Shown: piece after piece, positions 1-64,000 of the stretch | Numbering within the stretch: position 1 is the stretch's first letter | Layout: the number at the start of each line of letters is the position of its first letter | DNA from: Candidatus Saccharimonadaceae bacterium | GTDB taxonomy: Bacteria; Patescibacteriota; Saccharimonadia; Saccharimonadales; Saccharimonadaceae | Assembly: GCA_031548885.1 (NCBI GenBank) | Contig: JAVBQO010000004.1 | Coordinates: 32,544 to 96,543, forward strand | Reading direction: 5' to 3' | Length of the DNA stretch: 64,000 nucleotides | The notes under the pieces: generated by a model | What the model saw: only the letters and a program-made list of their open reading frames with translations | Database searches by the model: none | Told to the model about the DNA's origin: nothing | Translations under genes and position numbers: made by a program

Positions 1-893
1 TCCAGCGAATTGTCAACGTGCCAAAACGCGGTCTGGGCGCGGCGTCGGTCGACAAGTTTTTGATATGGCAGGCGAATTCCGACAAATCAATTATCGAATC
101 ATTACTCGACATCGAATCTCATCCTGATCTGACAAAACGCGCTAAAACGGCGTTTTCGCGGCTAGGCGGAGCGCTATTCTCGCTAACCAAAGTGGCTAAC
201 GAAATGCTCCCCGACGAATTCATCAGCGCAGTCATCAAAAAATTTGACTACATGGACCATCTGAACGACGGCACGCCGCAGGCCGAAACGCGCCAGGAAA
301 ATGTCGCCGAACTTTTGTCGGTGGCCAAAGAATATATCGACGCCGGGCTGGACGGCTTCTTAGAAGAAGTCGCGTTGGTGTCGAGTCTCGATTCGGTTGA
401 CGATCGCGCCGACGCCGTGACGCTGATGACGTTGCACGCCGCCAAGGGTTTGGAATTTCCGGTTGTGTTCATGATCGGCATGGAAGAGTCGATATTCCCG
501 CACTCGCGGGCGTTGTTCGAACCATCCGAAATGGAAGAAGAGCGTCGTCTCTGTTACGTCGGCATGACGCGGGCCCGCGAAGAATTGATTTTGACGGCGG
601 CGCAGTCGCGCATGTTGTTCGGTCAACGCCAATACAATCCGCCGTCGCGATTTTTGGCTGATATCGATGCGAAAATCGAGCAAATGTCGCCGTATGATGA
701 CTTTTCGCAAAAATTCGACGACGAAATTCAATATGAACCAGAGGAGATTGACGTCAAAATTGGCGATAAAGTTCGCCATCAAATTTTCGGCATTGGCCGC
801 GTTGCCGAGATTGACGGAACAGTGGTCGAAGTCGACTTTAACGGCAAAACCAAAAAGCTAAACGTGGCCTTCGCGCCACTCGAAAAACTGTAG
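1..893 (+). CDS. pcrA: UvrD/PcrA-family ATP-dependent DNA helicase, C-terminal part (5' end lies outside the window)
   Basis: C-terminal helicase motifs LMTLHAAKGLEFPVVF and RRLCYVGMTRARE. The frame is open to the window edge. Confidence 0.85.
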   Translation, partial: QRIVNVPKRGLGAASVDKFLIWQANSDKSIIESLLDIESHPDLTKRAKTAFSRLGGALFSLTKVANEMLPDEFISAVIKKFDYMDHLNDGTPQAETRQENVAELLSVAKEYIDAGLDGFLEEVALVSSLDSVDDRADAVTLMTLHAAKGLEFPVVFMIGMEESIFPHSRALFEPSEMEEERRLCYVGMTRAREELILTAAQSRMLFGQRQYNPPSRFLADIDAKIEQMSPYDDFSQKFDDEIQYEPEEIDVKIGDKVRHQIFGIGRVAEIDGTVVEVDFNGKTKKLNVAFAPLEKL

Positions 894-943
894 CAAACCG
901 CTTGCGTATTCGCATGTGATCATGTATAATGTCTAGTTAGATT

Positions 944-2188
944 GTGAGTAAGTTTTTTAATCAGGCACGCTCCCATTTCTCTGCCCATCCACCACTCTGG
1001 GTCTGGCTCGCAGCGGTATTTCTGTTTGGCTTGGCGGTTTTCGGTACGGCCAATTTCGCATTGGCGCAGGGTCAGGAGAAAATTGGCGATGGCGACCGAT
1101 TGATTACGGTGTACGACAACGGCAGCGAAAAAACCATCGTTACCAAAGCGGCAACAATCGCCAGCGCACTAGAGCAGGCCAATATTGCGGTCGAATCGGC
1201 TGACGCTGTCGAGCCGGCGCTGGATACGCAGCTGGTTGCGAAATCGTACAGTGTGAATATTTATCGTGCCCGACCGGTGGTGGTGGTCGACGGCGAACAG
1301 AAAACGCGCGTTATGACAGCGGCGCAATCGCCAGCCAAAATCGCCGAATCGGCTGGCGTAACGTTGTATGCAGAGGACGAAACCAACGTGGCGCGCGTCA
1401 ATGACGTGCTATCGGACGGCGGCGCTGGACTAACTATGACGATTGATCGGGCCACAGCGGTCAATTTGGTGCTATACGGCCAGAATAATCAAATTCGCAC
1501 GCAGGCCAAAACCGTTGGCGATTTGTTGGATGAAAAAGGCGTTAAAATGGACGCCGCCGATACGCTTAACACGAATCGTTCGGCGTCAATTACCGATGGC
1601 ATGACGATCGAAGTTTGGCGTAACGGCACGCAAACCGTCACACAGGACGAGGCGATTCCGTTTGAAACCGAGCAGATTCAGGATGCCGACCAACCGGCAG
1701 GCTACAAAGCTGTCAAAGAAGCCGGACAAGATGGCGTTAAATCGGTGACTTACGAAATCGAAATGCGCAACGGCCAGGAAATTTCGCGCAAAGAAATCCA
1801 AAGCGTGACGTCGAAAGAGCCGAAGAAACAGATCGAAATTGTCGGCGTAAAAGTTAAACCGGGCCAAGGCCTGACCAAATCAATGGGCGTCAATCAGTTT
1901 ACCGATAGCAGAGGTGTAACTCACCGCGAAACCTACTATGATTTGCCGATGAACAGAGTGATGCAAAATTGCGGCCAAGGTGGCTATTATACCGTTAGGG
2001 AAGATGGTGTTAAGGTTGATCGTGATGGCTATGTCATCATAGCTGCGAACCTAGGCATTTATCCACGATGTTCAGTTGTGGAAACGAGTGTCGGTCCGGG
2101 TAAAGTTTACGATACAGGTGGTTTTGCGGCATATCATCCTCACGGCTGGGATATTGCTACTGACTGGACGAATTACAACGGCGTTTAG
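944..2188 (+). CDS. DUF348/G5/3D-domain cell-wall-associated protein (YabE/RpfB-like architecture)
   Basis: N-terminal TM anchor, DUF348-like repeats, G5 segment (GYKAVKEAGQDGVKSVTYE) and a C-terminal 3D-like segment (GKVYDTGGF). TTGCGT-N17-TATAAT promoter at 902-930. GTG start. Confidence 0.75.
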   Translation: MSKFFNQARSHFSAHPPLWVWLAAVFLFGLAVFGTANFALAQGQEKIGDGDRLITVYDNGSEKTIVTKAATIASALEQANIAVESADAVEPALDTQLVAKSYSVNIYRARPVVVVDGEQKTRVMTAAQSPAKIAESAGVTLYAEDETNVARVNDVLSDGGAGLTMTIDRATAVNLVLYGQNNQIRTQAKTVGDLLDEKGVKMDAADTLNTNRSASITDGMTIEVWRNGTQTVTQDEAIPFETEQIQDADQPAGYKAVKEAGQDGVKSVTYEIEMRNGQEISRKEIQSVTSKEPKKQIEIVGVKVKPGQGLTKSMGVNQFTDSRGVTHRETYYDLPMNRVMQNCGQGGYYTVREDGVKVDRDGYVIIAANLGIYPRCSVVETSVGPGKVYDTGGFAAYHPHGWDIATDWTNYNGV

Positions 2189-2244
2189 TATCTTTATCTG
2201 ACAAACGATCTTTTGTCAGTGACTCGGGGTGCTATACTGGATTC

Positions 2245-2667
2245 ATGATTGAAATTATTGCGAGAAGCTCCATCATATTGCGCCTCGAAAAAGGCGAAAA
2301 ATTAGTCGAACAACTGAACCGATTTGCGTTCAATCATCCGCGAAAAAGCTACTGGCTAAGCGGCATCGGGTCGTCGCACGATCCCGACATTGGTTATTTC
2401 GACGAAACAATTCTGAATTATCAGTGGAGTGTGCGCGAAGGCGTATTTGAAATCGTTAATTTGACCGGGAATTTGGCGTGGGAAAACGGCCAACCGATTT
2501 GGCACATCCACGGCACATTTGCCAACCAAACGAACGTCACGTTCGGCGGGCATATTCGCGAATTGATCGTCGGCGCGACGTGCGAAATTCATCTGACGGA
2601 AATCGCGCCGTTAAAACGCACGTTTGACGCACAGATCGGACTGAAATTGCTCGATGAAACCGAATAA
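2245..2667 (+). CDS. PPC (DUF296) domain protein
   Basis: 140 aa with a WHIHGTF...FGGHI pattern typical of PPC/DUF296. TATACT at 2233-2238 lies 6 nt before the ATG. Confidence 0.6.
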   Translation: MIEIIARSSIILRLEKGEKLVEQLNRFAFNHPRKSYWLSGIGSSHDPDIGYFDETILNYQWSVREGVFEIVNLTGNLAWENGQPIWHIHGTFANQTNVTFGGHIRELIVGATCEIHLTEIAPLKRTFDAQIGLKLLDETE

Positions 2668-3430
2668 GGATTTGGGTCAACATTGGTTGCACGACGCACA
2701 AATTTTGCGCGACATTGCCGACGCGGCCGATATTTCTGCTGATGATACGATTTTGGAAATTGGGCCGGGGCTTGGCACGCTGACGGCGGTTTTGTGCGAA
2801 AAGGCAAAAAACGTGGTGGCAGTGGAATTCGATGCGGAATTGGCGAAAAACTTGCCATCACGCGTCGATGCGAAAAATTTGTCGGTGCAAAACGCCGACA
2901 TTTTGCAATTTGATTTGTCAAAGTTGCCGGCAAACTACAAAGTCGTCGCCAACGTGCCGTATTACATCACGTCAAAAATCGTCCAAAAGTTGTTGAGCGC
3001 GAACAATCGTCCGTCTGTCGCCGTGTTGTTGGTGCAGCGCGAAGTCGCCGAGCGCCTGGCCGCGAAACCGGGCGACATGAGCGTGCTGTCGGTGTCGGCG
3101 CAATTATTTGCGACGGTTGATTTGGGTGTCGAAGTCCCGGCGAAATTTTTCACGCCGCCGCCAAAGGTCGATTCGCAGGTCGTGGTTTTGCGCGTGCGAA
3201 AAACGCCACTTTTCGCAGATTTGGACGAAAAACGGTTTTTTCGCATCGTCAAAGCCGGCTTTGCGAACCGCCGAAAAAAACTTCGATCAAGTTTGGCCGC
3301 GGGTTTGGCAATTTCGAAACTCGATGCCGAAAACCTGTTGCGAAAAGTCGACATCGACCCAAATTTGCGTGCGCAGGATTTGTCACTAACGGATTGGCAG
3401 AAATTGGCGCAACTTACGGCAAATTACTGA
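2654..3430 (+). CDS. rsmA: 16S rRNA (adenine1518/1519-N6)-dimethyltransferase
   Basis: LGQHWL N-terminus, SAM motif ILEIGPGLGTLT and the NVPYYITS motif. Overlaps the upstream gene by 14 nt. Confidence 0.9.
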   Translation: MKPNKDLGQHWLHDAQILRDIADAADISADDTILEIGPGLGTLTAVLCEKAKNVVAVEFDAELAKNLPSRVDAKNLSVQNADILQFDLSKLPANYKVVANVPYYITSKIVQKLLSANNRPSVAVLLVQREVAERLAAKPGDMSVLSVSAQLFATVDLGVEVPAKFFTPPPKVDSQVVVLRVRKTPLFADLDEKRFFRIVKAGFANRRKKLRSSLAAGLAISKLDAENLLRKVDIDPNLRAQDLSLTDWQKLAQLTANY

Positions 3431-4127
3431 TCGGGGTAACGATGCCGCCGAAGTTATAGGGTGTAAATTTGTCGGCAATAAATATCGGAAACGCGGGAGA
3501 TTTGACACCGAGCTGCGCGGCGATTTTTGGATCAAGCTGCGAAAACGCTTTCACATTGCTGGATGAGAGCGCCAATCGCTCCGCATCGTCGAGCGTCATC
3601 CGATAGGCGAACTTAAACAAGTTTGGTTTTCCGATCGTGTCAAAGTTTTTCATGCACGCCAGCATTTTGATTATTTCGCACCATATCAGCGCACTGTTTC
3701 GTGGACTTGTCATGCTGATTTCAACTGAAATGCAATTGGGTGCGAATTTGTTGATACAATCATAATCCGCAACTATGACGCGGCTGAGTCCTAATATAGA
3801 TGCAATGTCGAGTAGTTTTGCGTTCGCATCTTTGCCAATGAAAGCGCAATCGTTATCAGGGCAGTGCGTATTGTGAAAGTCGAAAACTATATCGTAATTC
3901 TGGCATTTGCTTAGCAAAAACTGCGCACGCTTTGATTCATACGAATCGTCATTTACGCCAAACGAACGATTCAAATCACGATTCATGAAGCGCCGATTCT
4001 GCCAAGTTGCGGCGGGGTTTGCAATTATCGTATCGATATTTGCGACAGGATTGTTTCGCAGTGATTTCACAACGTCTATACCCAATGGCTCGTTGCCGTG
4101 CATACCGCCAATAACCAAGATTCTCAT
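3414..4127 (-). CDS. Succinylglutamate desuccinylase/aspartoacylase (AstE/AspA) family zinc deacylase
   Basis: N-terminal MRILVIGGMHGNEPLG zinc-binding motif of the M14-like AstE/AspA family. Confidence 0.7.
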   Translation of the reverse strand: MRILVIGGMHGNEPLGIDVVKSLRNNPVANIDTIIANPAATWQNRRFMNRDLNRSFGVNDDSYESKRAQFLLSKCQNYDIVFDFHNTHCPDNDCAFIGKDANAKLLDIASILGLSRVIVADYDCINKFAPNCISVEISMTSPRNSALIWCEIIKMLACMKNFDTIGKPNLFKFAYRMTLDDAERLALSSSNVKAFSQLDPKIAAQLGVKSPAFPIFIADKFTPYNFGGIVTPISNLP

Positions 4128-4777
4128 TTCGCACTCCCGTCGATGATGGCGAAATCACGCCAGTCTGGAACGTCCAGTTTTCGCTTTAGGATGGTGGCGT
4201 TTTTGCCGAAATCACGCTCGCTGGCTCGTAGCATCGCTGGATTGATTGTTCGAAACGCAAGCGTCGGCACGTCAAGCTGCGCCATCATGCCGCAAACAAA
4301 AGAGCCAAAATTTCGCAAATTTCCACGTGGCCGAGCCTGTAAATCCGCGAAAACCTCGTCAAGCCAAATTATTGGCGACACAATGTTTGTTTCGATCCAA
4401 TCTTGCATCGTGTCGTCCGAATATTTATTTTCCGCAATAGTGTCCGGTGTTGTAGCATAAGCCACTGCGGCGAGCGCTATTCTTCCAGAAAATTGTTCGG
4501 TGTACCAAGAACTATTTTTTGATTCGTAGCTGGCGAATAATTCAGTTAGATATGTGGTAGAATATGCTGGATCGACAACCTGCTCGCTGCATGTTCCGCA
4601 AGTTAACCCGGGTCCTGTGGCGGAAAATCCGCTGGCGCATCGCGATGCGGGGTCTACGCATTTGCCGCGCTCAAACCAGGGCGGGCCAGCGAATGCGGAT
4701 CGATACGTTTCGGCAAGCTCATTATAAAATGGCCGAATGTCCGTTGATGAGTAAAATTTTTCCATAAATTTCTCCAT
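4124..4777 (-). CDS. Hypothetical protein, translationally coupled upstream of the AstE/AspA-like gene
   Basis: 217-aa ORF that overlaps the downstream gene by 4 nt. I recognise no family. The Cys-rich stretch CVDPASRCASGF...CGTC is notable. Confidence 0.5.
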   Translation of the reverse strand: MEKFMEKFYSSTDIRPFYNELAETYRSAFAGPPWFERGKCVDPASRCASGFSATGPGLTCGTCSEQVVDPAYSTTYLTELFASYESKNSSWYTEQFSGRIALAAVAYATTPDTIAENKYSDDTMQDWIETNIVSPIIWLDEVFADLQARPRGNLRNFGSFVCGMMAQLDVPTLAFRTINPAMLRASERDFGKNATILKRKLDVPDWRDFAIIDGSAK

Positions 4778-4833
4778 TAAAATATAAAGTAAAACGCCAG
4801 CCTGCGCTGACGAAAAACATCAAAGCAGGCTGG

Positions 4834-5136
4834 CTATTGATGTCTGTGATGTTGGTTTATGGCAGTAGAGTAGCCGCCCGTGCCGGTTTTGATCCATTCA
4901 CTAATGCGTGCGATAGTTCGCGTGCTGAGTCCGGTTTTCGCAGAAATTTCGGTATATGGAACTTTGTCGAATAGCATTTTGGCTGCCGCAAAACGAGCGC
5001 TAACTTCAGTTATTTCGCTCTCTGTCATGACGTCGCGTAGAAATTTTTGCATGAGTCCTGTCGAATTGATTTCGCAAAGAATCGTCGCGAATTCGCGAGG
5101 ATATTCTTTGCTCCAGACGGTGCTCGAGTTTGACAT
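4834..5136 (-). CDS. TrpR-related YerC/YecD family DNA-binding protein
   Basis: 100 aa with the HTH segment YTEISAKTGLSTRTIARISEW typical of YerC/YecD. Confidence 0.75.
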   Translation of the reverse strand: MSNSSTVWSKEYPREFATILCEINSTGLMQKFLRDVMTESEITEVSARFAAAKMLFDKVPYTEISAKTGLSTRTIARISEWIKTGTGGYSTAINQHHRHQ

Positions 5137-5187
5137 GGCTATAATTTACCAAAGTAAAGCGAAATAATCAAGTGATAAAATGTACGT

Positions 5188-5877
5188 ATGAAAAATGAAC
5201 CAATAATTTTCGCGAATGACGTGGTAATTGGGTTGTCGACAATCGCCGACGGCAACATGAAAGCCGTCGATCCGCGCGACGAAAACGAAGTTGCGAAAAA
5301 CCAAAAGACATTTTTAAGCCGTACCGGTTTTGCTCCGTCCGAAACGATGATGATTTGGCTTGACTACGACAAAACTGATTTTTGTCGGTACGAAATCGTT
5401 ACGAAAAATGCCGAACACAAAAATATGCGAAAGATCGTCGGCGTTGACGGTTTGGCGACGACTGCGAAAAATCTGGCGATTTTCTTGCCGCTGGCCGATT
5501 GTCTGGGCGCGGTCATCTACGATCCGAAAAATCACGCGCTGATGGTTTCGCATCTGGGCCGACATTCCGCCGAACAGTTCGGCGCACGAAAATCAATCGA
5601 ATTCATGACGAATCAGTTCGGCACCAACCCGCGTGACGTACGAATTTGGCTGAGTCCGACGGCCGGCGCGAAAAATTATCCGTTGTTTGCGTTTGATAAT
5701 CGTAGTTTGCGTGACGTGAATGTCAGGCACTTTTCGCAGTCTGGTGTTTTGCCGGAAAAAATCAGCGGCGGCGAGATTGATACGACGACTGACGAGAATT
5801 ACTTTTCGCATAGCGTAGCGCAAAAAACTGGCGTCGATTTGGGCAAACGCTTCGCAATTGTCGCGAAGCTACGGTAG
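5188..5877 (+). CDS. pgeF: YfiH/PgeF (DUF152) family purine nucleoside phosphorylase / peptidoglycan editing factor
   Basis: LPLADCLGAVIYD and SHLGRHS motifs (Cys/His triad region). TGaTAAAAT lies 6 nt before the ATG. Confidence 0.75.
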   Translation: MKNEPIIFANDVVIGLSTIADGNMKAVDPRDENEVAKNQKTFLSRTGFAPSETMMIWLDYDKTDFCRYEIVTKNAEHKNMRKIVGVDGLATTAKNLAIFLPLADCLGAVIYDPKNHALMVSHLGRHSAEQFGARKSIEFMTNQFGTNPRDVRIWLSPTAGAKNYPLFAFDNRSLRDVNVRHFSQSGVLPEKISGGEIDTTTDENYFSHSVAQKTGVDLGKRFAIVAKLR

Positions 5878-5922
5878 TCGCTGGCTGGTTTTTGTATATT
5901 GGTTGTGCTAATATAGCGTCAT

Positions 5923-7608
5923 ATGATGTATGGTGCGCGTCGATTATCGGGACGTCGGATTGTTTTGCTGCTAGCGGCGTTTTTGCTAGCTGTCGCGTCA
6001 GTGATAAGCATCGGCGCAACGCGAAATTTCGCACATGCGTTGGGCAATTCGGCCGCAATTTCGCCCAATCAAGGCTCAATCGCTGGTGGCACCGAAGTCA
6101 CCATCACTGGCCTGGGCTTCATCTCTGACGCAAAAATTGTTCAAGTCGCCGCCGGCAGCGACACTTCGTTTGCAGTGGATGATCACGGAAATTTGTATGC
6201 GTGGGGTTCGAACTATGTCGGCATGCTAGGCGATGGAACGACCGGCCAAATCAATACACCGAAGAAAATTTCCGGTGGAACAATCCCTGGCTCAGCCTTG
6301 ACGGCAGGCGTCAAAATCGTCAAAGTTGTGACGGGCGTTTACGGCACTGTCGCGCTTGATAGCAACGGCGACGTTTACGTTTGGGGTGCTGGTCCGCTGG
6401 GCAACGGCGATATCAACAGCTATAGCTTGCTACCGGTCAAAATTTCTGGTGGTGTTATCCCTGGTTCGGCTTTGGTCGACGGCGTAAGAATCGTTGACGC
6501 GTCGCTTATCGGTACCTCTGACGGGTTGCTTGTCGATGACGAGGGCGATTTGTACGGTTGGGGTCAGAATTCCAGCGGCGAGTTGGGCGACGGAACTAGC
6601 ACCGAGCGTTCCGTGCCGATCAAACTGTCCGGCGGCGTCATCCCAGATTCAGCCTTGACGGAAGGCGTAAAGATAGTGCAAATAGCATCCAAACTGTACG
6701 GATTCACGGCGGCGGTTGACGATCAAGGTAATCTTTACACGTGGGGTGTTAATTACAACGGCGAGCTGGGCAACGGAACGACCATCCACACTTCTTTACC
6801 AGCGGTAATTTCTGGCGGCGTCATTCCCGGATCCGCTCTGACGACGGGTGTCAAAATAGCTCAAGTCAGCATCGGCGAGGACGCCTTAGTCGCTCGTGAC
6901 GAACAGGGAATCATCTATGTCTGGGGCTCAACCGGCTGGGGTCAGTTCGGCAACGGCGCACATTTTGCTGATAGCCCAGTGCCGATTCAGATTTCCGACG
7001 GTGCTGTTCCAGGATCGATCTTGGACTCTGATGTCAAAATCGCCCAGGTGTCGGTCGGTTCATATAGCGTAGCCGCCATCGACGACCAAAACAACGTTTA
7101 CACATGGGGATACAGCGGCTACGGACTGGCTGGCAACGGAATGTTGACGGAAAATTTATTGCCAGTTTTGATTTCCGGTGGCGTCATCTCGGGATCGGCC
7201 CTGGCTGCCGACGTCGTATTGGCTCAAATTGCGGTTGGCGTCAGTCACGCTATTGCCTTCGACGACCAAGGAGCTGTCTATGGATGGGCACTCAACAACG
7301 TAGGCCAATTGGGTCAAGGTGCGTCTGGCCCGGAAAATTGCTGGGGGAGCGGGTGCGCCAAAGTGCCGATCGAAATCTCCGGTTTTGATCCGGACACCGA
7401 CACGGTTGTATCGGTAAGATTCGGCGATGTGGAATGTACGGATTTGCAGGTTATTTCCGATACAGAATTGACTTGTCGCGTGCCGGCGCGTGCGGCGGGG
7501 CGCGTTGACGTGACGCTGACGACGCAGCTGGGCGAGACGCTGGCCATCAATGGCTATACGTATCTTGACGAAACCATTCCCGGCGTGCCAAATACCGGCC
7601 GCTTCTAG
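5923..7608 (+). CDS. Secreted RCC1-repeat beta-propeller protein nested in an IPT/TIG domain
   Basis: Signal peptide, then seven Y(x)WG...G(x)LG(x)G RCC1 blades (YAWGSNYVGMLGDG, YVWGAGPLGNGD, YGWGQNSSGELGDG, YTWGVNYNGELGNG, YVWGSTGWGQFGNG, YTWGYSGYGLAGNG, YGWALNNVGQLGQG), flanked by the two halves of an IPT/TIG fold. Confidence 0.8.
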   Translation: MMYGARRLSGRRIVLLLAAFLLAVASVISIGATRNFAHALGNSAAISPNQGSIAGGTEVTITGLGFISDAKIVQVAAGSDTSFAVDDHGNLYAWGSNYVGMLGDGTTGQINTPKKISGGTIPGSALTAGVKIVKVVTGVYGTVALDSNGDVYVWGAGPLGNGDINSYSLLPVKISGGVIPGSALVDGVRIVDASLIGTSDGLLVDDEGDLYGWGQNSSGELGDGTSTERSVPIKLSGGVIPDSALTEGVKIVQIASKLYGFTAAVDDQGNLYTWGVNYNGELGNGTTIHTSLPAVISGGVIPGSALTTGVKIAQVSIGEDALVARDEQGIIYVWGSTGWGQFGNGAHFADSPVPIQISDGAVPGSILDSDVKIAQVSVGSYSVAAIDDQNNVYTWGYSGYGLAGNGMLTENLLPVLISGGVISGSALAADVVLAQIAVGVSHAIAFDDQGAVYGWALNNVGQLGQGASGPENCWGSGCAKVPIEISGFDPDTDTVVSVRFGDVECTDLQVISDTELTCRVPARAAGRVDVTLTTQLGETLAINGYTYLDETIPGVPNTGRF

Positions 7609-7640
7609 CAAAACTTATCAAAATCATCTAAAATAGCCAT

Positions 7641-9882: not shown

Positions 9883-9926
9883 ACAAACACCGAAAATCAT
9901 CAAATGTAATTTGATAGGAGTTTGTT

Positions 9927-53647: not shown

Positions 53648-53803
53648 TTTCGGGATTTTGAAATGTTTCGCAAGTGCCGAAAACAGCGCCGCGTTTGCTG
53701 CGCCGCCGATCGCTTTTTCGCGCAGATAAACAATCAGGCCGTCGTCGGATTCGACAATTTTCGGGCCGATTTTGCTACCGGGTTTGACCAGAATCTGTAT
53801 CAT
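53579..53803 (-). CDS. DUF167 (YggU/UPF0235) family protein
   Basis: ILVKPGSK...GGAANAALFSALAKHFKIPKSQIRIVRGHRARRK matches the DUF167 pattern. Confidence 0.75.
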   Translation of the reverse strand: MIQILVKPGSKIGPKIVESDDGLIVYLREKAIGGAANAALFSALAKHFKIPKSQIRIVRGHRARRKFIILAPVR

Positions 53804-54968: not shown

Positions 54969-55008
54969 GTTTTAATTATAGCGCTTTTATAATTTTTGCG
55001 CACGTTCG

Positions 55009-55626
55009 TCAAATGGTTACGGCCGAATCGATTTTTTGCGGAGGATTTTCGCCGTCGATCACAATCGCTTGATCGTTTGGAAGAGGTTCAAAATTAAACT
55101 TACCAGTATAGTTTTTCGCCAGTTTGTCATATTGCGCCGAATATTTTTCCGTGCCGAAATGCGGCATAGGCACGAAATCGATCAAATTGAGGCCGTCGTA
55201 ATTTCGCAAATCGGGCGCTTTTAATGCGTCGTCCAGAAATTGCATTGGTGCAATCGACGGCCCCAAGATTGCCGCACCAGCGCTAGCGCCGACGTAAGGA
55301 ATTTCGCGATTGACTGCGTCGATAATGATCTTATCGTGGCCGAATTTTTTCAGTTCGTCCAACAAATAAAATGAATTTCCGCCAGCCACATAGATCGCAT
55401 CGTTTTGATCGATAGCTTGGCGTAGCTGCGAGGCGCTAATTTGCGATAAATCGATGTTCGTTAATCGATATCCTGCGGATTGTAATTTTGAAAAATCGTC
55501 GTAGACAAATGTTGGATTTTCGTAAACGTTTCCAGCGGTAGGGACAAATACGATTCGTGAACGGTTCGGAATGAAATTGCGGACTGCACCCAGGTTCTTC
55601 GCTATCAATAACATTCTCCTTGGCAT
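55009..55626 (-). CDS. pepE: Peptidase E / S51 family dipeptidase
   Basis: YVAGGNSFYLL and GASAGAAILGPSI (Ser nucleophile region). TGcTAGAAT lies 6 nt before the ATG. Confidence 0.78.
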   Translation of the reverse strand: MPRRMLLIAKNLGAVRNFIPNRSRIVFVPTAGNVYENPTFVYDDFSKLQSAGYRLTNIDLSQISASQLRQAIDQNDAIYVAGGNSFYLLDELKKFGHDKIIIDAVNREIPYVGASAGAAILGPSIAPMQFLDDALKAPDLRNYDGLNLIDFVPMPHFGTEKYSAQYDKLAKNYTGKFNFEPLPNDQAIVIDGENPPQKIDSAVTI

Positions 55627-55664
55627 GTTTCAATTCTAGCATGCGGACATGATATAATTTGAGC

Positions 55665-56690
55665 ATGAATCGCACGAAAGTTTTATTACTATTCGGCGGC
55701 GAATCTTCGGAGCACGAGGTGTCTATTAACTCGGCGAAAAATGTTTACGCGGCGATCGACGATGCGAAATTCGACGTGATTCCTGTGTATATCGACAAGC
55801 ACGGCCATTGGTGGTTGCTGGACAATTTTGACGACGAAATTATTTTGGACGAGGCCGAGCAAATCATGCCGGTATTGGGCGCGGGTGGTTTTGTTGGCAT
55901 GCAGTCGCGAAATGTATTGAAACCGGACGTGATTTTGCCAATTCTGCACGGGCGCGGCGGCGAAGACGGTTCAGTGCAAGGTTTAGCGCAGTTATTGAAT
56001 ATCCCGATTGTCGGCTGTGACATTGCAGCATCGGCGGTATGCATGGACAAAGATTTGGCGAAACATTTGCTGCAAGGCATGGGGCTAAAAACCGCGCCGC
56101 ACAAATCGGTCATGAGGTGGCAAAAAGCGCCGAATTTCGCGGAATTATCGGTGCGGCTAGGCGACGATTTGTTCGTCAAACCAACTGCACAGGGCTCGTC
56201 GGTCGGCGTGTCGCGCGTACGAAGTCAGACGGAACTAACAAACGCGCTAGACGAAGCATTCCGATACGATAGCCAAGTTTTGATTGAACAGGCCATCGCC
56301 GGCCGCGAATTGGAGGTTGCGGTGCTCGGCAATCCGCCAACTGTCGAAGCTAGCGATGTCGGCGAAATTACGGCAGCCGACTTTTATGATTATGACACCA
56401 AATACGGCACTGGATCGACGGCCAAAATCCAAATCCCGGCGGATTTGCCCGACGAAACCCGTGAACAGATCCGCATGCAGGCGTTGCAAGTTTTCGAAAT
56501 CCTAAACTGCTCCGGCTTGGCGCGGGTTGACTTTTTCTTGGCAAAAAACGGCGAAATTTATGTCAATGAAGTCAACACTTTGCCGGGCTTCACCAATATC
56601 AGTATGTATCCGAAATTGTGGATGGCAGCTGGCGTGACGTATCCGCAACTGATTGAGCGGCTTATCAATTTGGCGCTCAGTCGTGTATAA
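55665..56690 (+). CDS. ddl: D-alanine--D-alanine ligase
   Basis: LLLFGGESSEHEVS, PILHGRGGEDGSVQG and NEVNTLPGFT. I prefer the ATG at 55665 (6 nt after TATAAT 55653-58) to the TTG at 55659 in the ORF track. Confidence 0.92.
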   Translation: MNRTKVLLLFGGESSEHEVSINSAKNVYAAIDDAKFDVIPVYIDKHGHWWLLDNFDDEIILDEAEQIMPVLGAGGFVGMQSRNVLKPDVILPILHGRGGEDGSVQGLAQLLNIPIVGCDIAASAVCMDKDLAKHLLQGMGLKTAPHKSVMRWQKAPNFAELSVRLGDDLFVKPTAQGSSVGVSRVRSQTELTNALDEAFRYDSQVLIEQAIAGRELEVAVLGNPPTVEASDVGEITAADFYDYDTKYGTGSTAKIQIPADLPDETREQIRMQALQVFEILNCSGLARVDFFLAKNGEIYVNEVNTLPGFTNISMYPKLWMAAGVTYPQLIERLINLALSRV

Positions 56691-56818
56691 TATAGACACA
56701 ATGGTTTGCGAATGCGGAACGGAAATTGACGAAAATGGCGAAGCGATTTATGCGTGCAACTGCGCCAGTCCGGCGCTTGGGGCCAGTGAATAAACGTAAA
56801 TAAAAGAGGAGAAATGAT

Positions 56819-57571
56819 ATGGTTTGGCTATGGATTGTGATAGCGGTTCTGGTGGTTTATTTCCTGTGTGGCATCAAAATTATCAATCAATATCAGCGCG
56901 GTGTGATTTTGACATTGGGGAAATTTACCGGCGTGCGCCAGCCGGGCTTGAAAATTATCTTGCCAATTTTCCAACGGGTAATTTTTGTTGACGTGCGTTC
57001 GACGCCGATCGACGTCCCGAAACAAGAAGTCATTACCAAAGATAACGTGACCGTCGGTGTTGACGCAGTTGTCTATTTTCGCGCCGTCAACCCGGAAAAA
57101 GCAATTCTGGAAACAACGAATTATATTTACGCGACATCGCAATTCGCCCAAGCGGCGTTGCGCGATGTGACCGGAAATGTCGAAATGGACGAATTGTTAT
57201 CCAAGCGCGACGAAATCAGCGAACAGATCAAAACCATCGTTGACCAACACACCGAACCGTGGGGAATCGACGTCGAAACTGTCAAAATCCAAAACATCGA
57301 ATTGCCGCAGGACATGAAACGCGCCATGGCCAAACAGGCCGAGGCCGAGCGCGAACGCCGCGCCAATATCATCAACGCCGATGGCGAAAAGGCCGCGTCG
57401 AAAACTTTGGCAGAAGCCGCTGAGATGCTGGCCGCCGCGCCGGGCGCAATCAACCTGCGAACTTTGAATACGTTGGAACGGATTTCGACCGAACCGTCAC
57501 AGAAAACGATGGTTTTGTTCCCGGTTGAATTGTTGGATGCGCTGCGTGGTAAGCAGCGGGGCGAAAAGTAG
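56819..57571 (+). CDS. SPFH/Band-7 (stomatin-like) domain protein
   Basis: TM anchor, INQYQRGVILTLGKF, and the KAMAKQAEAERERRA coiled segment. AGAGGAGA Shine-Dalgarno. Confidence 0.88.
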   Translation: MVWLWIVIAVLVVYFLCGIKIINQYQRGVILTLGKFTGVRQPGLKIILPIFQRVIFVDVRSTPIDVPKQEVITKDNVTVGVDAVVYFRAVNPEKAILETTNYIYATSQFAQAALRDVTGNVEMDELLSKRDEISEQIKTIVDQHTEPWGIDVETVKIQNIELPQDMKRAMAKQAEAERERRANIINADGEKAASKTLAEAAEMLAAAPGAINLRTLNTLERISTEPSQKTMVLFPVELLDALRGKQRGEK

Positions 57572-57975
57572 TGCTCCGGCTGGCCGGTTGCGTCATCACT
57601 GACAAAACTGGCGCAATACTGATGTTGCATCGCAACACGCCGAAACGCACGCAGTGGGAAATTCCCGGCGGCAAAATCGAGGACGGCGAAACGATTTCGC
57701 AAACGGCCGAACGCGAACTGGCCGAAGAACTTGGCATCAAGGTTGAAACGGGCGAACTGCTGGGCGAGCACTGCTTTTCGGAGGACGACAACGAGATGAG
57801 CTATTGTTGGATTCGTGCGAAAATTATCAGTGGCGATCCAAAAATCATGGAGCCGCAAACGCACGATTCGTTCGCGTACTTTTCGATTGTCGAGTTGTGC
57901 AAAATAGAGAATGGTCTGTCGGAAAATGCGAAAAATTTCGTGCGGGAACATCGGGCTGGCAGCTTTCGGCTATAG
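57571..57975 (+). CDS. NUDIX hydrolase
   Basis: Nudix box GGKIEDGETISQTAERELAEELG. GTG start abuts the upstream stop. Confidence 0.85.
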   Translation: MLRLAGCVITDKTGAILMLHRNTPKRTQWEIPGGKIEDGETISQTAERELAEELGIKVETGELLGEHCFSEDDNEMSYCWIRAKIISGDPKIMEPQTHDSFAYFSIVELCKIENGLSENAKNFVREHRAGSFRL

Positions 57976-57983
57976 CCGGTCGA

Positions 57984-58976
57984 TTATTCGCAAAATACGT
58001 CCGCTAAGCCTCTAGGTTTGAAATCAGCAGGCCAATTGTCGGTCAAAACTGCAGCGAGTCCCGTCGGCAGAATTTTCCCGCTATCCGGGTCGACGCCAGT
58101 TTCGTTGTGGCTAGAAAAGTCACGCGAAATTTTTGGATTTATGTCCGGTGCTGCTCGCAAGATTGCCCTCAGTGTTTTGATCATAAAGGAGCGAGCTTCC
58201 TCCTTTTTCTCCTGTAGATCATTTGGGCGGCGGCCGATGATTTTGGACTCGACGAACTCTTTGCCCAACACGCGCTCTGATAAATTCTCCAGGTCACTAA
58301 TCTCGCATTTCATGATGTCGAACTCTATTTCCGGAGTAAATCTTTCTGGCAAAAATAAACCTTCGATTTCTGGACGCGACCAGCGACTTGAATCGATGAC
58401 AAGTGGTTTGACGGTACGTTTTGGCCGCGTATACTGGCTGAACAACTGTTTTTGATTGTAGCCGATGCGTTTTTGCAATAGTGCCAGACTCTCCGTGAGG
58501 CAATCAGTCATGTCGCTGTTCCAAATGGTTGCCGGTACGAACCAATCATCAATTTTGCCTTCGCGAAAATCACGATCAGCCAAACGCGCTGCGTTTCGCA
58601 GATGCACGTCCGAAATTATGTCAAAATATGTAATTTTCCGATCCGCTACTACCATATCGAACGCAGCGTCGGCGAGCTTGCCTTCGAGCAGTACTATGCG
58701 ATCCTGCGGCAGATTGCCGTACATTTGCCGGTTCAGCTCGTCGGGCGCGGGTTGATTGCGTTCGTCGGGGTAGTTTTCTTTGACAAATTCGCCAGTTCGA
58801 ACGATATACGGGTCGTCGAGGCCATTTTCTCTTAGGCCATTCAGCAATGCCGCAAATACAGTTGACGACATGCTGACCGGAATCCTCCCGCGAACCGCGA
58901 AAATATGGTCCGGATCGGGATTGTGTAAAGTTTCCTGGACCGTTTGCTGTAGATTGCGGTACTCGAGAGAGCTCAT
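57984..58976 (-). CDS. Hypothetical protein
   Basis: 330-aa ORF of native composition. TATAGT lies 6 nt before the ATG. No family recognised. Confidence 0.55.
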   Translation of the reverse strand: MSSLEYRNLQQTVQETLHNPDPDHIFAVRGRIPVSMSSTVFAALLNGLRENGLDDPYIVRTGEFVKENYPDERNQPAPDELNRQMYGNLPQDRIVLLEGKLADAAFDMVVADRKITYFDIISDVHLRNAARLADRDFREGKIDDWFVPATIWNSDMTDCLTESLALLQKRIGYNQKQLFSQYTRPKRTVKPLVIDSSRWSRPEIEGLFLPERFTPEIEFDIMKCEISDLENLSERVLGKEFVESKIIGRRPNDLQEKKEEARSFMIKTLRAILRAAPDINPKISRDFSSHNETGVDPDSGKILPTGLAAVLTDNWPADFKPRGLADVFCE

Positions 58977-59075
58977 TATTTAACTATACAACTAAATGAT
59001 GGATATGTCAATATAACGCTGAATGACAAATCTGAATAATGAGGCGGTTTAAGCGCTTCTGCGTGCTTTGGCCTG

Positions 59076-59104
59076 TTGATTTTTCGCAAACAATTCGATA
59101 AAAT
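59076..59104 (+). promoter_or_regulatory. Promoter of tRNA-Gly
   Basis: TTGATT (59076-81), 17-nt spacer, TAAAAT (59099-104), 12 nt before the tRNA 5' end. Confidence 0.55.
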
Positions 59105-59116
59105 AATTGGTGTCAT

Positions 59117-59192
59117 GCGGGTTTAGCTCAGTTGTTAGAGCGCTTCCTTGCCAAGGAAGAGGTCGAGAGTTAGAGTCTCTTAACCCGCACCA
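59117..59192 (+). tRNA. tRNA-Gly (anticodon GCC) with a non-canonical U19:A56 elbow pair, CCA encoded
   Basis: GCGGGTT acceptor, GCTC-AGTTGTTA-GAGC D-arm, CTTCC-TTGCCAA-GGAAG anticodon arm, GAGAG-TTAGAGT-CTCTT T-arm. Confidence 0.9.
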
Positions 59193-59204
59193 TATGGGAA
59201 AATG

Positions 59205-59225
59205 AAGACGCTTCGGCGTCTTTTT
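59205..59225 (+). terminator. Intrinsic terminator after tRNA-Gly
   Basis: AAGACGC-TTCG-GCGTCTT followed by TTT. Confidence 0.7.
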
Positions 59226-59421
59226 CGTTTGCTTTCAATCTGTAAATTGGTAAAACAACCGGTGTGCAAACTTCTCCGAATGAATTTGCTCAAGACATTT
59301 TGTTCCGCGCTGCAAATTGTTCGGACTCGGGCAAGCAGAATCGGATCGCTCACGAGTTATTTTCGCAAAACCGCCCGCGTGCTATAATAAACACAATCGT
59401 GAATGCGAAAAGTGGAGGAAA

Positions 59422-61050
59422 ATGAGTAAAATCGCGAACTACCTGCAGCAACATTTGAATGGCGAAGTTGTGTCGTCGCCGCGGGTGCGGAAATTTTTCG
59501 CGACCGACGCTAGTATTTTGACAAAAACGCCGCAGATTATTGTCTATCCGCGAACGACCAATGATGTGCGAAAAGTGGCTCGCTTCACTTGGCAACTGGC
59601 CGAAAAAGGCCACGTTTTGCCGATCACGGCGCGCGGCAGCGGCACCGACCAAACCGGCGCGGCAATCGGCAACGGCATCGTGATGGTTTTTCCGGCGCAC
59701 ATGCAAAAAATTCTGGAACTCGACACCAAAACGCGCATGGTTCGGGTGCAACCGGGCATGAACTTCAAAGCTTTGCAAGAAGCCATGGCGACGCACGGAT
59801 TATTTCTGCCGCCGTTTCCGTCCAGTTTCAAATATTCGACGATCGGCGGCGCGATCGCCAACAATACTTCTGGCGAAAAAGCATTGAAATACGGTTCGAT
59901 GCGCAATTGGACCGACCGGCTAGAAGTCGTGTTGGCCAACGGCGAAGTTATCCAAACCGGCCGATTGAACAAGCGCGAATTGAATGCGAAAAAAGGTTTG
60001 CCGGGTATGGAAGGCGAAATTTACCGCGCGTTGGACGGATTGATTACCGACAATGTGGCGATCTTGGCGAAAAAGTCCGCCCAGAAATTACCCGACAGCA
60101 CCGGCTATGCCATCGAACGGGTCAAAAACGCTGACGGAACGTTTGATTTGACGCCGCTGATCGTCGGCTCGCAGGGAACGCTCGGCATTGTCACGCAGGC
60201 GATTGTGAAACTAATGCCGCGTCCCGACGCAGCAGAATTGATGGCGGCGGCGCTGCGCACGACTGACGATTTGGGAAAAATTGTGACGGAACTACGCGAA
60301 CTGGAACCTAGTACGCTGGAGTTTATTGATGGCAGCACGCTGGAAATTATTGAACGCCAAACCGGCGCGAAACCTTACAAAAAATTCGGCAACGCACGTC
60401 CGGCAGCGATTTTGTTGCTAGAATTTGACGATTCGTCGGCCAGCAAACGTAGCAAAAAATCCAAACAAGCTGCAAAAATATTGCAAGAACACGGCGATGT
60501 TGTCACGGCGCAGAATTGGGAAGAGCAGGAAAGTTTGTGGGACATTCGCCACAGCGTGTCAACCATTACGAATTATAGCGAAAACAATCAGGCTGCGCTG
60601 CCCGTTACCGGCGACGCAACTGTCGAGACCGCGAAAATGAACGAATTGTTGACACAGGTGCAGGAATTGTTGCGCCGTTATCATGTTCAAGCCGCGATTT
60701 GGGGCCACATTGGCGACGGAAACTTGAACGTGCAACCGTTGTTGGATTTGCGAAAAATCGGCGATCGCCAAAAAGTTTTCAAATTCATGAAAAGTTATCA
60801 CGAAATCGTTGCAAAATTGGACGGTTCGGTTGCTGGCGAATACGGCGATGGCCGATTGCGCGTGCCGTTCGTGCGGTCGCAGTACGGCGACGATTTGGCG
60901 AAAGTTTATGCTCAGGTCAAGCAAATTTTCGACCCGCGCGGCGTGTTGAACCCCGGTGTCAAAACTGATACAGAATTGAAAGATGTCGTGGCGGCGCTGC
61001 GCACGGAATACGATTTGACGCATTTGGCCGAATATCAGCCGCGAATTTAG
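59422..61050 (+). CDS. FAD-linked oxidase (GlcD / D-lactate dehydrogenase family)
   Basis: FAD_binding_4 region (VYPRTTNDVRKV...ITARGSGTDQTGAAI) and GVLNPG near the C-terminus. GTGGAGGA Shine-Dalgarno and TATAAT at 59384-89. Confidence 0.85.
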   Translation: MSKIANYLQQHLNGEVVSSPRVRKFFATDASILTKTPQIIVYPRTTNDVRKVARFTWQLAEKGHVLPITARGSGTDQTGAAIGNGIVMVFPAHMQKILELDTKTRMVRVQPGMNFKALQEAMATHGLFLPPFPSSFKYSTIGGAIANNTSGEKALKYGSMRNWTDRLEVVLANGEVIQTGRLNKRELNAKKGLPGMEGEIYRALDGLITDNVAILAKKSAQKLPDSTGYAIERVKNADGTFDLTPLIVGSQGTLGIVTQAIVKLMPRPDAAELMAAALRTTDDLGKIVTELRELEPSTLEFIDGSTLEIIERQTGAKPYKKFGNARPAAILLLEFDDSSASKRSKKSKQAAKILQEHGDVVTAQNWEEQESLWDIRHSVSTITNYSENNQAALPVTGDATVETAKMNELLTQVQELLRRYHVQAAIWGHIGDGNLNVQPLLDLRKIGDRQKVFKFMKSYHEIVAKLDGSVAGEYGDGRLRVPFVRSQYGDDLAKVYAQVKQIFDPRGVLNPGVKTDTELKDVVAALRTEYDLTHLAEYQPRI

Positions 61051-61051
61051 C

Positions 61052-61080
61052 TTGCGAAAAACGTGCGATTTCGGTAGAAT
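61052..61080 (+). promoter_or_regulatory. Promoter of tRNA-Leu(CAG)
   Basis: TTGCGA (61052-57), 17-nt spacer, TAGAAT (61075-80). Confidence 0.5.
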
Positions 61081-61118
61081 AATTTTGTTGAGTTTGCGAA
61101 AACTTTACAATCAAATAT

Positions 61119-62774: not shown

Positions 62775-62791
62775 ATATTGATTTTAGCATT

Positions 62792-62956
62792 TGACTAAAA
62801 CAATATACGTCCGCTGTTGTTATCTCTGATGGAATTCGTGTTTAGCTTTATACTTTCTTCGCTATCATCAATAGATTGCAACAATTCCAATAATTCAATT
62901 AACGCATCGTCCTCGTGCGCTGCAATTGTGTCATTGGCCTCGTTGCTGTCATTCAT
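62792..62956 (-). CDS. Candidate small acidic protein (54 aa) between the regulator and the integrase
   Basis: MNDSNEANDTIAAHEDDALIELLELLQSIDD..., read by hand and below the ORF-track cutoff. GGGGGT lies just upstream. Confidence 0.3.
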
Positions 62957-63012
62957 CTACCCCCATTCTTAACTAGGGATTTCCCATACCAAACACAAAT
63001 GTTATGAGAAAG

Positions 63013-63960
63013 TTATAAGAAAAATCGGTAGGTATTCTTGCTGCCGGAAACCTTGCGAATATGGTTTTTGCCAGATTCGGCTTTGCCTAATTCCTTGTTT
63101 AACGAAGATATGCGGCTCTGTATCGTTTTGGGATCGTAGGATGTTTCGCGATTCATGTCGATCGCTTCTACGATTTTATCGTAACTCAGTTCGTACCTTT
63201 TGGCTTTCGCAAAAGCGACCATCAAACTCAGTAGCTGCGGACTGTGCAAATCGAGCAGTCTGCCGTTCTTGTATAACTGATTTTCATTAACGATGGAGAA
63301 TTCGCCTAACCCCAGCTTTTGTATCGGCACGGAAACTATGCCCTGTTGCGAAATATTAACATGCGTATGAAGCGTCCTAAGCGCCGATAACAGTGTTTTA
63401 GAGCTAAAGGCGAGTACTTGTGTGTCGAACATGATGTCTGTCAGAAAAACATCAGCTTCATTGATCGGCTTGTCGTCATACTTTGCTAGCCTGTAACCTT
63501 GAATGTAGAGCTCGTCACAATAGCTTGCCGGTGCAACATCTTTCGCAACAATGAGGTTGTAATACTTGGATAGTTCGCGGTACGCTTCTTCGAATTTGTT
63601 ATTTTCAGAATCGTTATCAAGCTGCGACGCTTTGCGATACTGCACAATGGATAGAACGCCAATAAATATTTCCGGATAATCTTGAGCGTCAGATGGTTTC
63701 GGATCTTGGAAATATTGCATGTATGCATCCCACTTTTCGCAAGCATTTCGTTCAGCAAGTTGAAGTGTGAAATCACAGAGAGCGATTTCTAGTTGCGATA
63801 GAAGCTCGTCAGTATCAGACAATATCCCATCATCAAGAGAGAGCAGAGTAGTTCGGCTTTTTTCACTGAGCGAGATGATTTTAAGTTGGATTGTTCTGCG
63901 AATATTTGGCAATTCAGAGTCGGCCAGAAGCCTATCCATAAATATCTGCGAATCACTCAT
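63013..63960 (-). CDS. Element-encoded protein with a C-terminal OmpR/PhoB-type winged-helix DNA-binding domain
   Basis: The C-terminus YDKIVEAIDMNRETSYDPKTIQSRISSLNKELGK...IRKVSGSKNTYRF follows the trans_reg_C pattern. The N-terminal 230 aa are unassigned. Confidence 0.6.
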   Translation of the reverse strand: MSDSQIFMDRLLADSELPNIRRTIQLKIISLSEKSRTTLLSLDDGILSDTDELLSQLEIALCDFTLQLAERNACEKWDAYMQYFQDPKPSDAQDYPEIFIGVLSIVQYRKASQLDNDSENNKFEEAYRELSKYYNLIVAKDVAPASYCDELYIQGYRLAKYDDKPINEADVFLTDIMFDTQVLAFSSKTLLSALRTLHTHVNISQQGIVSVPIQKLGLGEFSIVNENQLYKNGRLLDLHSPQLLSLMVAFAKAKRYELSYDKIVEAIDMNRETSYDPKTIQSRISSLNKELGKAESGKNHIRKVSGSKNTYRFFL

Positions 63961-64000
63961 TATTTCATCAAAAGACGGTTTGTCGGATTGCGAAGCTTGC

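Follow-up and report, generated by a model that had tools for sequence, protein, structure and literature searches.

A hyper-abundant octamer in genes and spacers of a Saccharibacteria genome, and its possible role in DNA uptake

In a 64-kb window of one Saccharibacteria genome (i.e., the whole stretch analysed here, positions 1–64000, from contig JAVBQO010000004.1), we counted 96 copies of the octamer TTGCGAAA or its reverse complement TTTCGCAA, 57 of them on the forward strand and 39 on the reverse strand, or 1.5 per kb. It is the most frequent 8-mer of the window, and the next two are the same word shifted by one base (TGCGAAAA with 89 copies and TTTGCGAA with 70). The abundance of this word, its accumulation at the level of DNA, its specificity to one lineage and its effect on the encoded proteins are directly observed. 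It is a hyper-abundant short genomic word, of the class that includes the uptake signal sequence (USS), the DNA uptake sequence (DUS) and the highly iterated palindrome HIP1, and none has been described before in this phylum. We tentatively propose that the word may be a self-recognition signal for natural transformation similar to USS and DUS, and we weigh this proposal against several alternatives.

Abundance and form of the word

To quantify the excess, we compared the observed counts with several null models. Over base composition alone (Markov order 0, whole window) 2.0 copies are expected, giving a 49-fold excess; the expectation is 12.7 at order 1 (7.5-fold), 18.5 at order 3 (5.2-fold), 33 at order 4 and 71.5 at order 5, where the observed-to-expected ratio (O/E) is 1.34. 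Dinucleotide shuffling (100 shuffles) gave 13.1 ± 3.5 copies with a maximum of 22. Within genes, where 90–91 copies were counted, we expected 6.7 under a codon-order shuffle, 17.5–19.7 under a synonymous codon shuffle and 30–42 when third bases were permuted while keeping the codon and the next base. When both the amino-acid sequence and codon-pair usage were kept, the expectation was 31 ± 5 (maximum 47) against 90 observed, an excess of ~3-fold; this null was also run leaving out one gene at a time. The overall excess is 5–7.5-fold by the dinucleotide and order-3 Markov nulls and ~3–5-fold by the codon-aware ones. An earlier note on this window had put it at 100-fold or more, a figure that came from a uniform-composition null and is not sustained by realistic ones (3- to 7.5-fold). 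According to the same note, loss of the signal under a codon-pair-preserving null would have been a refutation, yet the enrichment persists there; the Markov comparison that it had also suggested supports the excess at order 3 and leaves little of it at order 5.

We found that TTGCGAAA and its shifts were the top outliers among all 8-mers under both codon-aware nulls (z-scores of 17.5 and 10.7), and that, once the codon and next base or the codon-pair context were kept, this word and its one-base shifts were the sole abundant outliers. By contrast, control loci from other bacteria (50 loci, 22 kb each) had low-count words with 3–16 copies as their top outliers. When the window was cut into thirds, its top words (the word itself with 47 and 30 copies, and the shift TGCGAAAA with 21) had a greater absolute excess than those of any other segment. 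One control locus alone approached the z-score of the window: in Kribbella antiqua (L069, NZ_SLWR01000002.1 153176-176001), the synonymous shuffle predicts 1.6 copies of CGTCGTAC in 22 kb, and 16 were counted.

The word has a soft 10-bp consensus, tTTGCGAAAa (TTTGCGAAAA). Information in its flanks is found only at positions −1 (T, 0.50) and +8 (A, 0.53) and is close to zero further out, and the word is therefore not part of a longer repeat; on these grounds we rejected a longer element or a dispersed repeat of the repetitive extragenic palindrome (REP) or miniature inverted-repeat transposable element (MITE) type. Under the synonymous null, O/E increases with length from 1.8 for GCGAA to 5.1 for the 8-mer, 6.5 for the 9-mers and 9.6 for TTTGCGAAAA, with a plateau thereafter, so that the unit is a soft 10-mer; this implies recognition of the word as a whole. 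Moreover, the T-run upstream and the A-run downstream of GCG occur together 2–6 times more often than under independence. Among the 64 words of the form TTxyzAAA, those with the core GCG have 96 copies and those with CGC (the same motif on the opposite strand) 70, while all others have at most 15. Such cooperativity of the arms on either side of GCG speaks for a reading of the entire word as one unit. We also rejected an origin of TTT-GCG-AAA by hairpin formation or template switching, since arm co-occurrence is specific to a GCG/CGC core and does not extend to any 3-nt loop, and this favours recognition of the sequence rather than a structural cause.

Some words that differ from TTGCGAAA by a single base are depleted. 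Specifically, the palindromic neighbour TTGCGCAA has a count of 2 against 16–20 expected (1 site, at 30682..30689, against 8–10 expected), and TTGCGTAA and TTGAGAAA are absent (4.9 and 3.3 expected, respectively). TTGTGAAA and TTGCAAAA, into which CpG deamination would turn the word, showed no depletion in the window. Several other palindromes are avoided window-wide, namely TTTAAA (1 vs. 11 expected), GCGCGC (12 vs. 46), GGCGCC (16 vs. 48) and CCCGGG (1 vs. 4); TGCGCA is not. Restriction systems elsewhere in the genome may be the cause of this avoidance.

Reading frames, encoded proteins and relatives

Within genes, the word was found in all six frame and orientation classes, each 3–11-fold above the expectation from codon usage. 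The 4,041 intergenic bases contain 7 copies against 0.5–0.8 expected from their own Markov models (~10-fold); at 1.7 copies per kb, compared to 1.5 per kb in genes, spacers and promoters are not preferred. These counts agree with the earlier observation of copies in both orientations, in intergenic DNA and in several frames. Of the coding contexts, xTT GCG AAA is the most common (32 copies), and the ratio of sense to antisense copies is 60:31; relative to codon expectation, antisense copies are enriched 6.0-fold and sense copies 4.1-fold. The sense preference is seen in both gene directions (46:24 in genes on the forward strand and 12:7 in those on the reverse strand). The GC skew is positive over the whole window, which therefore lies on one replichore; the 57:39 split follows the sense of the genes in either direction and so is not polar with respect to replication. 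Given that the excess extends to every frame, to either strand and to intergenic DNA, and that it survives the codon-pair null, the sequence patterns indicate that the enrichment reflects a force on DNA and not on peptide or mRNA, as had been suspected before.

We then looked at how this affected the proteins. Protein-compatible sites (i.e., places where the encoded amino acids would allow the word) carry it in 89 of 195 cases (46%), against 17.3 predicted by codon usage, and such sites are twice as frequent in the window as in related Saccharibacteria (3.3 vs. 1.7 per kb). Relative to amino-acid composition, peptides that the motif can encode reach 1.8–3.2 times their expectation in five of the six classes and are thus roughly doubled, compared to 1.0–1.4 in the relatives. 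Specifically, O/E in the window and in the relatives is 2.29 and 1.31 for [FLIV]AK, 3.03 and 0.96 for LR[KN], 2.59 and 1.31 for CE, 3.20 and 1.29 for [FLIV]SQ, 1.79 and 1.43 for FA[KNIMTRS], and 1.35 and 1.08 for FR[KN]. In alignments of orthologues, residues encoded by motif codons equal the modal residue of the relatives in 60% of cases (63% for other codons), and they lie in less conserved columns (0.63 vs. 0.71). Some motif-creating replacements affect residues that are invariant in 12–15 relatives, namely a proline replaced by serine (TCG) and a leucine by phenylalanine (TTT) in SbcB, and a tyrosine by phenylalanine (TTC) in Obg. In conserved columns overall, the excess of amino-acid replacements at motif codons was not significant (5/36 vs. 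210/2254, p = 0.38).

The host is a Saccharibacterium: the best relatives of its UvrA are found in metagenome-assembled genomes of Saccharibacteria at 80–84% identity, and its gene order FtsA-like/RuvX/MltG/LysM-CHAP/Obg/SbcB/UvrA/DedA/L25/ABC is common, wholly or partly, to Saccharibacteria relatives. The presence of a lysM-TM7 RNA (see below) agrees with this assignment. We compared the window with 13 Saccharibacteria-type loci from relatives, whose UvrA identity reaches 84% and whose GC content is 0.45–0.54 in most cases. Each holds 0–3 copies of the word, where ~33 per 22 kb would be present at the density of the window, and this includes the two nearest relatives, L084 (84% UvrA identity) and L085 (83%), both of which are syntenic. 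Only 7 of the 364 compatible sites in the relatives are filled (1.9% vs. 46% in the window), and in none of the 13 loci did we find a comparably abundant 8-mer. Equal frequency in relatives of similar GC content, which the earlier note had listed as a refuting outcome, was thus not what we found; judged from these loci, the word is lineage-specific, and neither GC content nor amino-acid usage accounts for it. A search with UvrA among ~15 billion proteins returned none above 84% identity (the UvrA of the window being a singleton), and a metagenome scan with SbcB returned only loci at 57–67% identity, all of them without the word.

Possible origins of the word

An enrichment that is blind to frame, strand and coding status, a cooperative unit of ~8–10 bp, the filling of half of the available sites, changes to proteins and confinement to one lineage together point to a sequence-specific protein combined with a fixation bias. 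We suggest, as the leading possibility but no more than that, that tTTGCGAAAa is a USS/DUS-like self-recognition signal for natural transformation. On this proposal, a fixation bias on double-stranded DNA would accumulate the word whatever its frame, strand or coding status, and a sequence-specific protein would read it as a unit of ~8–10 bp. The competence machinery (type IV pilus and ComEC, present in the phylum) would prefer DNA that bears the word, and recombination of conspecific DNA would spread new copies wherever proteins tolerate them (i.e., molecular drive). Natural transformation through ComEC and the presence of type IV pili in Saccharibacteria (PMC10633639) make uptake a plausible reading. 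By analogy, uptake-biased molecular drive is the known mechanism that would give exactly such a pattern in proteome and genome. The bolder version, in which this would be the first DNA-uptake signal outside Proteobacteria and in which a competence-pilus receptor and uptake-biased recombination would have filled about half of the permissible sites and so reshaped proteins, strikes us as somewhat more doubtful. A literature search found no paper linking Saccharibacteria with an uptake sequence.

For the comparison with known systems, we used figures from PMC2817400, from the abstract of PMC5861425 and from general background, which do not rest on the same statistics. Like our word, USS (Pasteurellaceae, core AAGTGCGGT) and DUS (Neisseriaceae, GCCGTCTGAA or 12-mer dialects) are short and non-palindromic, and they appear roughly once per kb on either strand, whatever the reading frame, and also between genes. 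Published copy counts (PMC2817400) together with known genome sizes give a density similar to the 1.5 per kb seen here. The tripeptides encoded by USS and DUS are roughly doubled, the residues concerned are as conserved as others, and placement is preferentially at poorly conserved positions (Findlay and Redfield, PMC2817400), the same proteome pattern as in the window. A slight richness of repair genes and a host phylum with competence (ComEC, type IV pili) are further shared features. On the other hand, our word is unrelated in sequence, shorter and softer (8–10 bp, graded); dialects of USS and DUS span related genera and families, while this word is in no sampled relative; and their hosts are Proteobacteria and not Patescibacteria.

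Several observations weigh against an uptake signal. USS and DUS exceed their expectation from composition by ~100–1000-fold, so that the modest excess seen here (5–7.5-fold) is one to two orders of magnitude smaller. USS are spaced evenly along the chromosome, whereas the copies in the window are clumped (coefficient of variation of gaps 1.44, variance-to-mean ratio of 2-kb bins 2.0). Compatible sites are filled unevenly across genes (permutation p = 4e-4), with 73/132 (55%) filled in 1–36.4 kb and 16/63 (25%) in 36.4–64 kb (p = 1e-4). The word is assembled from oligomers that the genome favours, and the order-5 Markov model absorbs most of the excess. That no sampled relative shares it means that there is no family-wide 'dialect'. 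CpG O/E is 1.66 in the window and 1.0–1.4 in related Saccharibacteria, a shift that is specific to the lineage, coincides with the word and hints at a broader mutational change. Finally, the 64-kb window contains no competence gene or pilin, and cultivated Saccharibacteria have been transformed with no sequence requirement or motif reported (PMC10633639).

Much of the same evidence could be explained by a sequence-specific bias in repair or gene conversion, of the very-short-patch (VSP) repair type that has been proposed for HIP1 (e.g., a methyltransferase-linked mismatch endonuclease), that turns near-matches into the word and leaves it as a functionless by-product. This alternative is unlikely in our view, and somewhat less probable than uptake. 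It predicts an enrichment just as blind to frame, strand and coding status and equally confined to one lineage, the rise in CpG occurred in the same lineage, and TTGCGCAA, TTGCGTAA and TTGAGAAA are depleted in the way that conversion into the word would produce. As far as the abstract of PMC5861425 goes, HIP1 (GCGATCGC, cyanobacteria) is likewise an octamer with more than about one copy per gene, present in all frames, exceeding codon-aware nulls and without a known function despite decades of work. HIP1 is, however, a perfect palindrome over known methylation sites, 15–300-fold over-represented and found in most of a phylum, whereas our word occurs in one lineage, lacks the palindromic symmetry of HIP1 and typical m5C sites, and has a palindromic neighbour, TTGCGCAA, that is avoided. 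There is no classic VSP signature, since the deamination products are not depleted, and the depleted neighbours could yield just ~20 of the ~70 excess copies. Furthermore, the only methyltransferase in the window belongs to a compositionally foreign restriction-modification (R-M) pair and is most like M.HaeIII, and we saw no Vsr-like gene among those of the window. It is less probable again that each copy is under selection as a genome-wide site for an abundant chromosomal protein, with a role in nucleoid organisation, condensation or self-marking in defence or recombination. The size of 8–10 bp, the cooperating arms and the layout of T-tract, GCG and A-tract do resemble a protein site, and ~1 copy per gene, clumping and regional differences would fit domain-wise binding. 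Against this, intergenic and promoter DNA is not preferred, spacing has no periodicity, a −10 box accompanies just 1 of the 96 copies, there is no strand polarity of the kind that Chi or the FtsK-orienting polar sequences (KOPS) would need, and the nearest syntenic relatives manage without the word while having the same local gene set.

Alternatively, there may be no recogniser at all, and the word could just be the most favoured combination at the far end of a shift, peculiar to this lineage, in context-dependent mutation and codon context (rich in CpG and A/T-runs, poor in TA and AG/CT), which we consider about as improbable as a selected protein site. As in a genome signature or codon-context bias, the word is built of favoured di- to hexanucleotides: the dinucleotide odds of the window are extreme (CG 1.66, AA/TT 1.42, GC 1.34, TA 0.56, AG/CT 0.58) and TTGCGAAA is composed of the favoured ones, the enrichment builds up gradually by ~1.1–1.4-fold per base added, many words that contain GCGAAA are enriched 2.4–3.5-fold under the synonymous-shuffle null, per-gene density of the word tracks CpG O/E (rho 0.51), and O/E at Markov order 5 is low. 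(NCG codons are also preferred, with GCG making up 44% of alanine, CCG 56% of proline and ACG 44% of threonine codons.) In contrast to such a signature, however, the word is a single discrete outlier that is enriched in spacers: only it and its shifts remain abundant outliers in the context-preserving nulls, including the codon-pair one, its arms cooperate across GCG with no other core enriched, and none of the 50 control loci has an abundant word of comparable excess. It also alters the proteome, with replacements at invariant residues and motif-encodable peptides about doubled, and the genes for enolase, BipA and SBP5 have equally high CpG O/E (1.6–1.8) and many GCGAAA but almost no full word. 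Two further explanations seem to us highly improbable. A polar guide sequence, read by a recombination or translocation motor, would share with Chi, KOPS and the architecture imparting sequences (AIMS) an over-represented octamer dispersed through genes at high density, and repair genes including sbcB are rich in the word; those sequences are strongly co-oriented with replication, whereas here one replichore has a 57:39 split whose orientation tracks gene sense (46:24, 12:7), and we rejected such polarity for lack of a replication-oriented skew. The least credible is an effect at the level of translation, such as a favoured codon pair or a peptide like [FLIV]-Ala-Lys. It would suit the prevalence of xTT GCG AAA and of sense copies, yet it is refuted by the stronger enrichment of antisense copies and the ~10-fold enrichment of intergenic DNA; in addition, the excess survives the codon-pair null, and orthologous, syntenic relatives are without it.

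What the word means depends on which of these readings is correct. To our knowledge, Neisseriaceae and Pasteurellaceae are the only families with an established sequence bias in DNA uptake. An uptake signal would therefore mean that conspecific-biased transformation evolved independently in ultra-small, naturally competent episymbionts of the candidate phyla radiation, and it would offer a handle for genetics, i.e., adding the word to transforming DNA. A repair or conversion bias would instead provide a second, non-palindromic case beside HIP1 of a drive at the DNA level that rewrites proteins, with an origin recent enough for the word-free syntenic relatives to serve for comparison. The word is also a sharp k-mer marker for binning the lineage, although it should not be used alone for calling genomic islands.

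Distribution along the window and individual copies

The checks on strand bias, periodicity and flanks that had been suggested for the word gave no replication skew, gaps that are flat modulo 3 and thus no spacing periodicity, and flank signal at −1 and +8 only. Genes of both halves of the window are compositionally native (CpG O/E 1.6–1.8). Word-poor genes include those for enolase (0 of 4 compatible sites filled), BipA (1/7), SBP5 (0/3), Ddl (0/2) and superoxide dismutase (SOD); the first four look like long-term residents because they have the high CpG O/E of the lineage and many GCGAAA. DNA-repair genes are modestly richer than the rest (24/39 vs. 65/156 compatible sites, p = 0.03).

The longest word-free stretch, 36314..42812 (6.5 kb), contains SBP5 (36975-38771), a putative restriction enzyme (39075-40301), a C5-methyltransferase (40301-41380), tRNA-Leu, tRNA-Val and SOD (41787-42374). 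The earlier report that the R-M island (39075-41380) lacks the word is literally true, but the stretch extends over the native-looking SBP5 and SOD, and the R-M pair, with 0 copies, has just 3 compatible sites; for the R-M genes and the serine recombinase taken together, 0 of 4 compatible sites are filled (P = 0.09). The low CpG O/E of the pair (1.1–1.3) suggests that it was acquired, as an island at a tRNA site; it adjoins tRNA-Leu(gag) at 41442-41529 and tRNA-Val(cac) at 41670-41746. The putative restriction enzyme has 408 amino acids and no family match, and the methyltransferase, whose identity was confirmed by Pfam, has M.HaeIII as its closest solved structure and an N-terminal extension of ~140 amino acids. 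At the other end of the window, a large serine recombinase (61185-62774, reverse strand) abuts tRNA-Leu(cag) at 61119-61206 in a region with a GC content of 0.43, and the region 61119-64000 looks like an integrated element. The gene at 63013..63999 (reverse strand, no assigned identity) lies beside them in this low-GC stretch and has a native density of the word, with copies at 63205-, 63346+, 63541- and 63735- (sign giving the strand) and 4 of 7 compatible sites filled. Considering the few compatible sites of the R-M pair, the poor native genes (enolase, BipA and Ddl among them) and this rich gene, the word is no reliable separator of native and foreign DNA at the scale of genes, contrary to what had been claimed for it.

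The densest gene is pepP (M24 aminopeptidase, 35170..36345, forward strand), with 7.7 copies per kb and 9 of 13 compatible sites filled (35250+, 35396-, 35501+, 35558+, 35596+, 35639+, 35882+, 36127- and 36306+). Exonuclease I, encoded by sbcB (23137..24555, forward strand), has six copies (23905+, 23951+, 24122+, 24189-, 24365- and 24467-; 6/12 sites). Both identities were confirmed by Pfam, and the positions quoted in the earlier note, i.e., six in sbcB, nine in pepP and three within 30131-30238 (30131-, 30170+ and 30231-), were all correct. Other rich genes on the forward strand are uvrA (25110..27932; 25771-, 25855-, 26083+, 26435-, 26476+, 26851-, 27145- and 27251-; 8/13), mnmA (12517..13542; 12576+, 12973+, 13115-, 13425+ and 13453+; 5/5), obg (21820..23115; 22136+, 22163+, 22551-, 22728- and 22968-; 5/5) and uvrC (33054..34493; 33486+, 33609+, 33720-, 34243+ and 34383+; 5/5). 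The short form of alaS (14107..15981, forward strand) has copies at 14543+, 15189+, 15680+ and 15713- (4/7); its product of 624 amino acids comprises the catalytic and SAD domains without the usual C-terminal region, and the open reading frame (ORF) that follows encodes an FtsA/PilM-like ATPase and not the missing part.

Three copies each were found in the genes for a cysteine desulfurase (10684..11931, forward strand; 10838+, 11069+ and 11587+), a 550-amino-acid protein with no assigned identity (17279..18931, forward strand; 17517+, 17780- and 18432-; 3/3), a DedA/VTT protein (28690..29409, reverse strand; 28716+, 29063- and 29218+) and an ABC transporter (30180..31955, reverse strand; 30231-, 31469+ and 31563+; 3/10). 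The remaining 31 single or double copies span 703..60755 and lie at 703-, 1236+, 3338+, 4311-, 5070-, 5291+, 9112+, 9278+, 12013+, 12360+, 19156+, 19720+, 19943+, 21074+, 24793-, 28517-, 29518+, 32988+, 34652+, 42813-, 44030+, 47106-, 47312+, 47798+, 50788-, 54009-, 54351+, 55202-, 57695-, 59361- and 60748+.

Among the intergenic copies, 30131- and 30170+ form an inverted pair (30131..30177) between the convergent L25 and ABC genes. They make up the outer stem of a predicted hairpin (−26.6 kcal/mol, z −4.9) that is followed by UUUU, so that the pair seems terminator-like; DUS likewise form inverted pairs that act as terminators, and here there is one such hairpin pair. Among close pairs window-wide, inverted ones are not in general excess over direct ones. 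Two copies, 61052+ and 61094+ (61052..61101), lie upstream of the tRNA-Leu(cag) mentioned above, and the one at 61052 provides the −35 element of a predicted promoter, TTGCGA-17 bp-TAGAAT. The earlier suggestion that TTGCGA serves as a −35 hexamer thus fits this copy with its −10 box but does not hold generally, given that −10 boxes were found at 1 of the 96 copies against 1.1 expected at random positions, i.e., with no excess. The other three intergenic copies are at 25092..25099 (forward strand), 10 bases upstream of the start of the longest uvrA ORF (25110); at 53666..53673 (reverse strand), between the convergent genes for a CDP-alcohol phosphatidyltransferase and rarA; and at 59082..59089 (reverse strand), upstream of the gene 57984-58976 (reverse strand) and adjoining tRNA-Gly (59117-59192).

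A few minor observations concern other words and elements. An Rfam lysM-TM7 RNA (RF03005, 79.5 bits) lies at 20452-20592 on the forward strand; it precedes the gene for a LysM-CHAP peptidoglycan hydrolase (20539-21762) and extends over its start. A scan of a viral collection gave 86 triple-motif matches against ~0.5 by chance, which is accounted for by viral contigs (L113 7787-7879; L087 9254-9362; L239 1903-2015) that carry short tandem arrays with a unit containing TTGCGAAA, for example CTTTCGCAA repeats adjoining a terminase gene; L113 is a terminase/portal fragment. We rejected these viral clusters as a related signal, since each is a tandem repeat of local extent and the phages and giant viruses concerned are unrelated. 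Two further dispersed 8-mers exceed codon-aware expectation in the window, GTCGGTCG/CGACCGAC (17 vs. 3.5–4.7) and CGGTTTTG/CAAAACCG (24 vs. 6–9.5), with example positions at 44, 7050, 22044 and 52007, and at 1507, 2787, 26105 and 47323.

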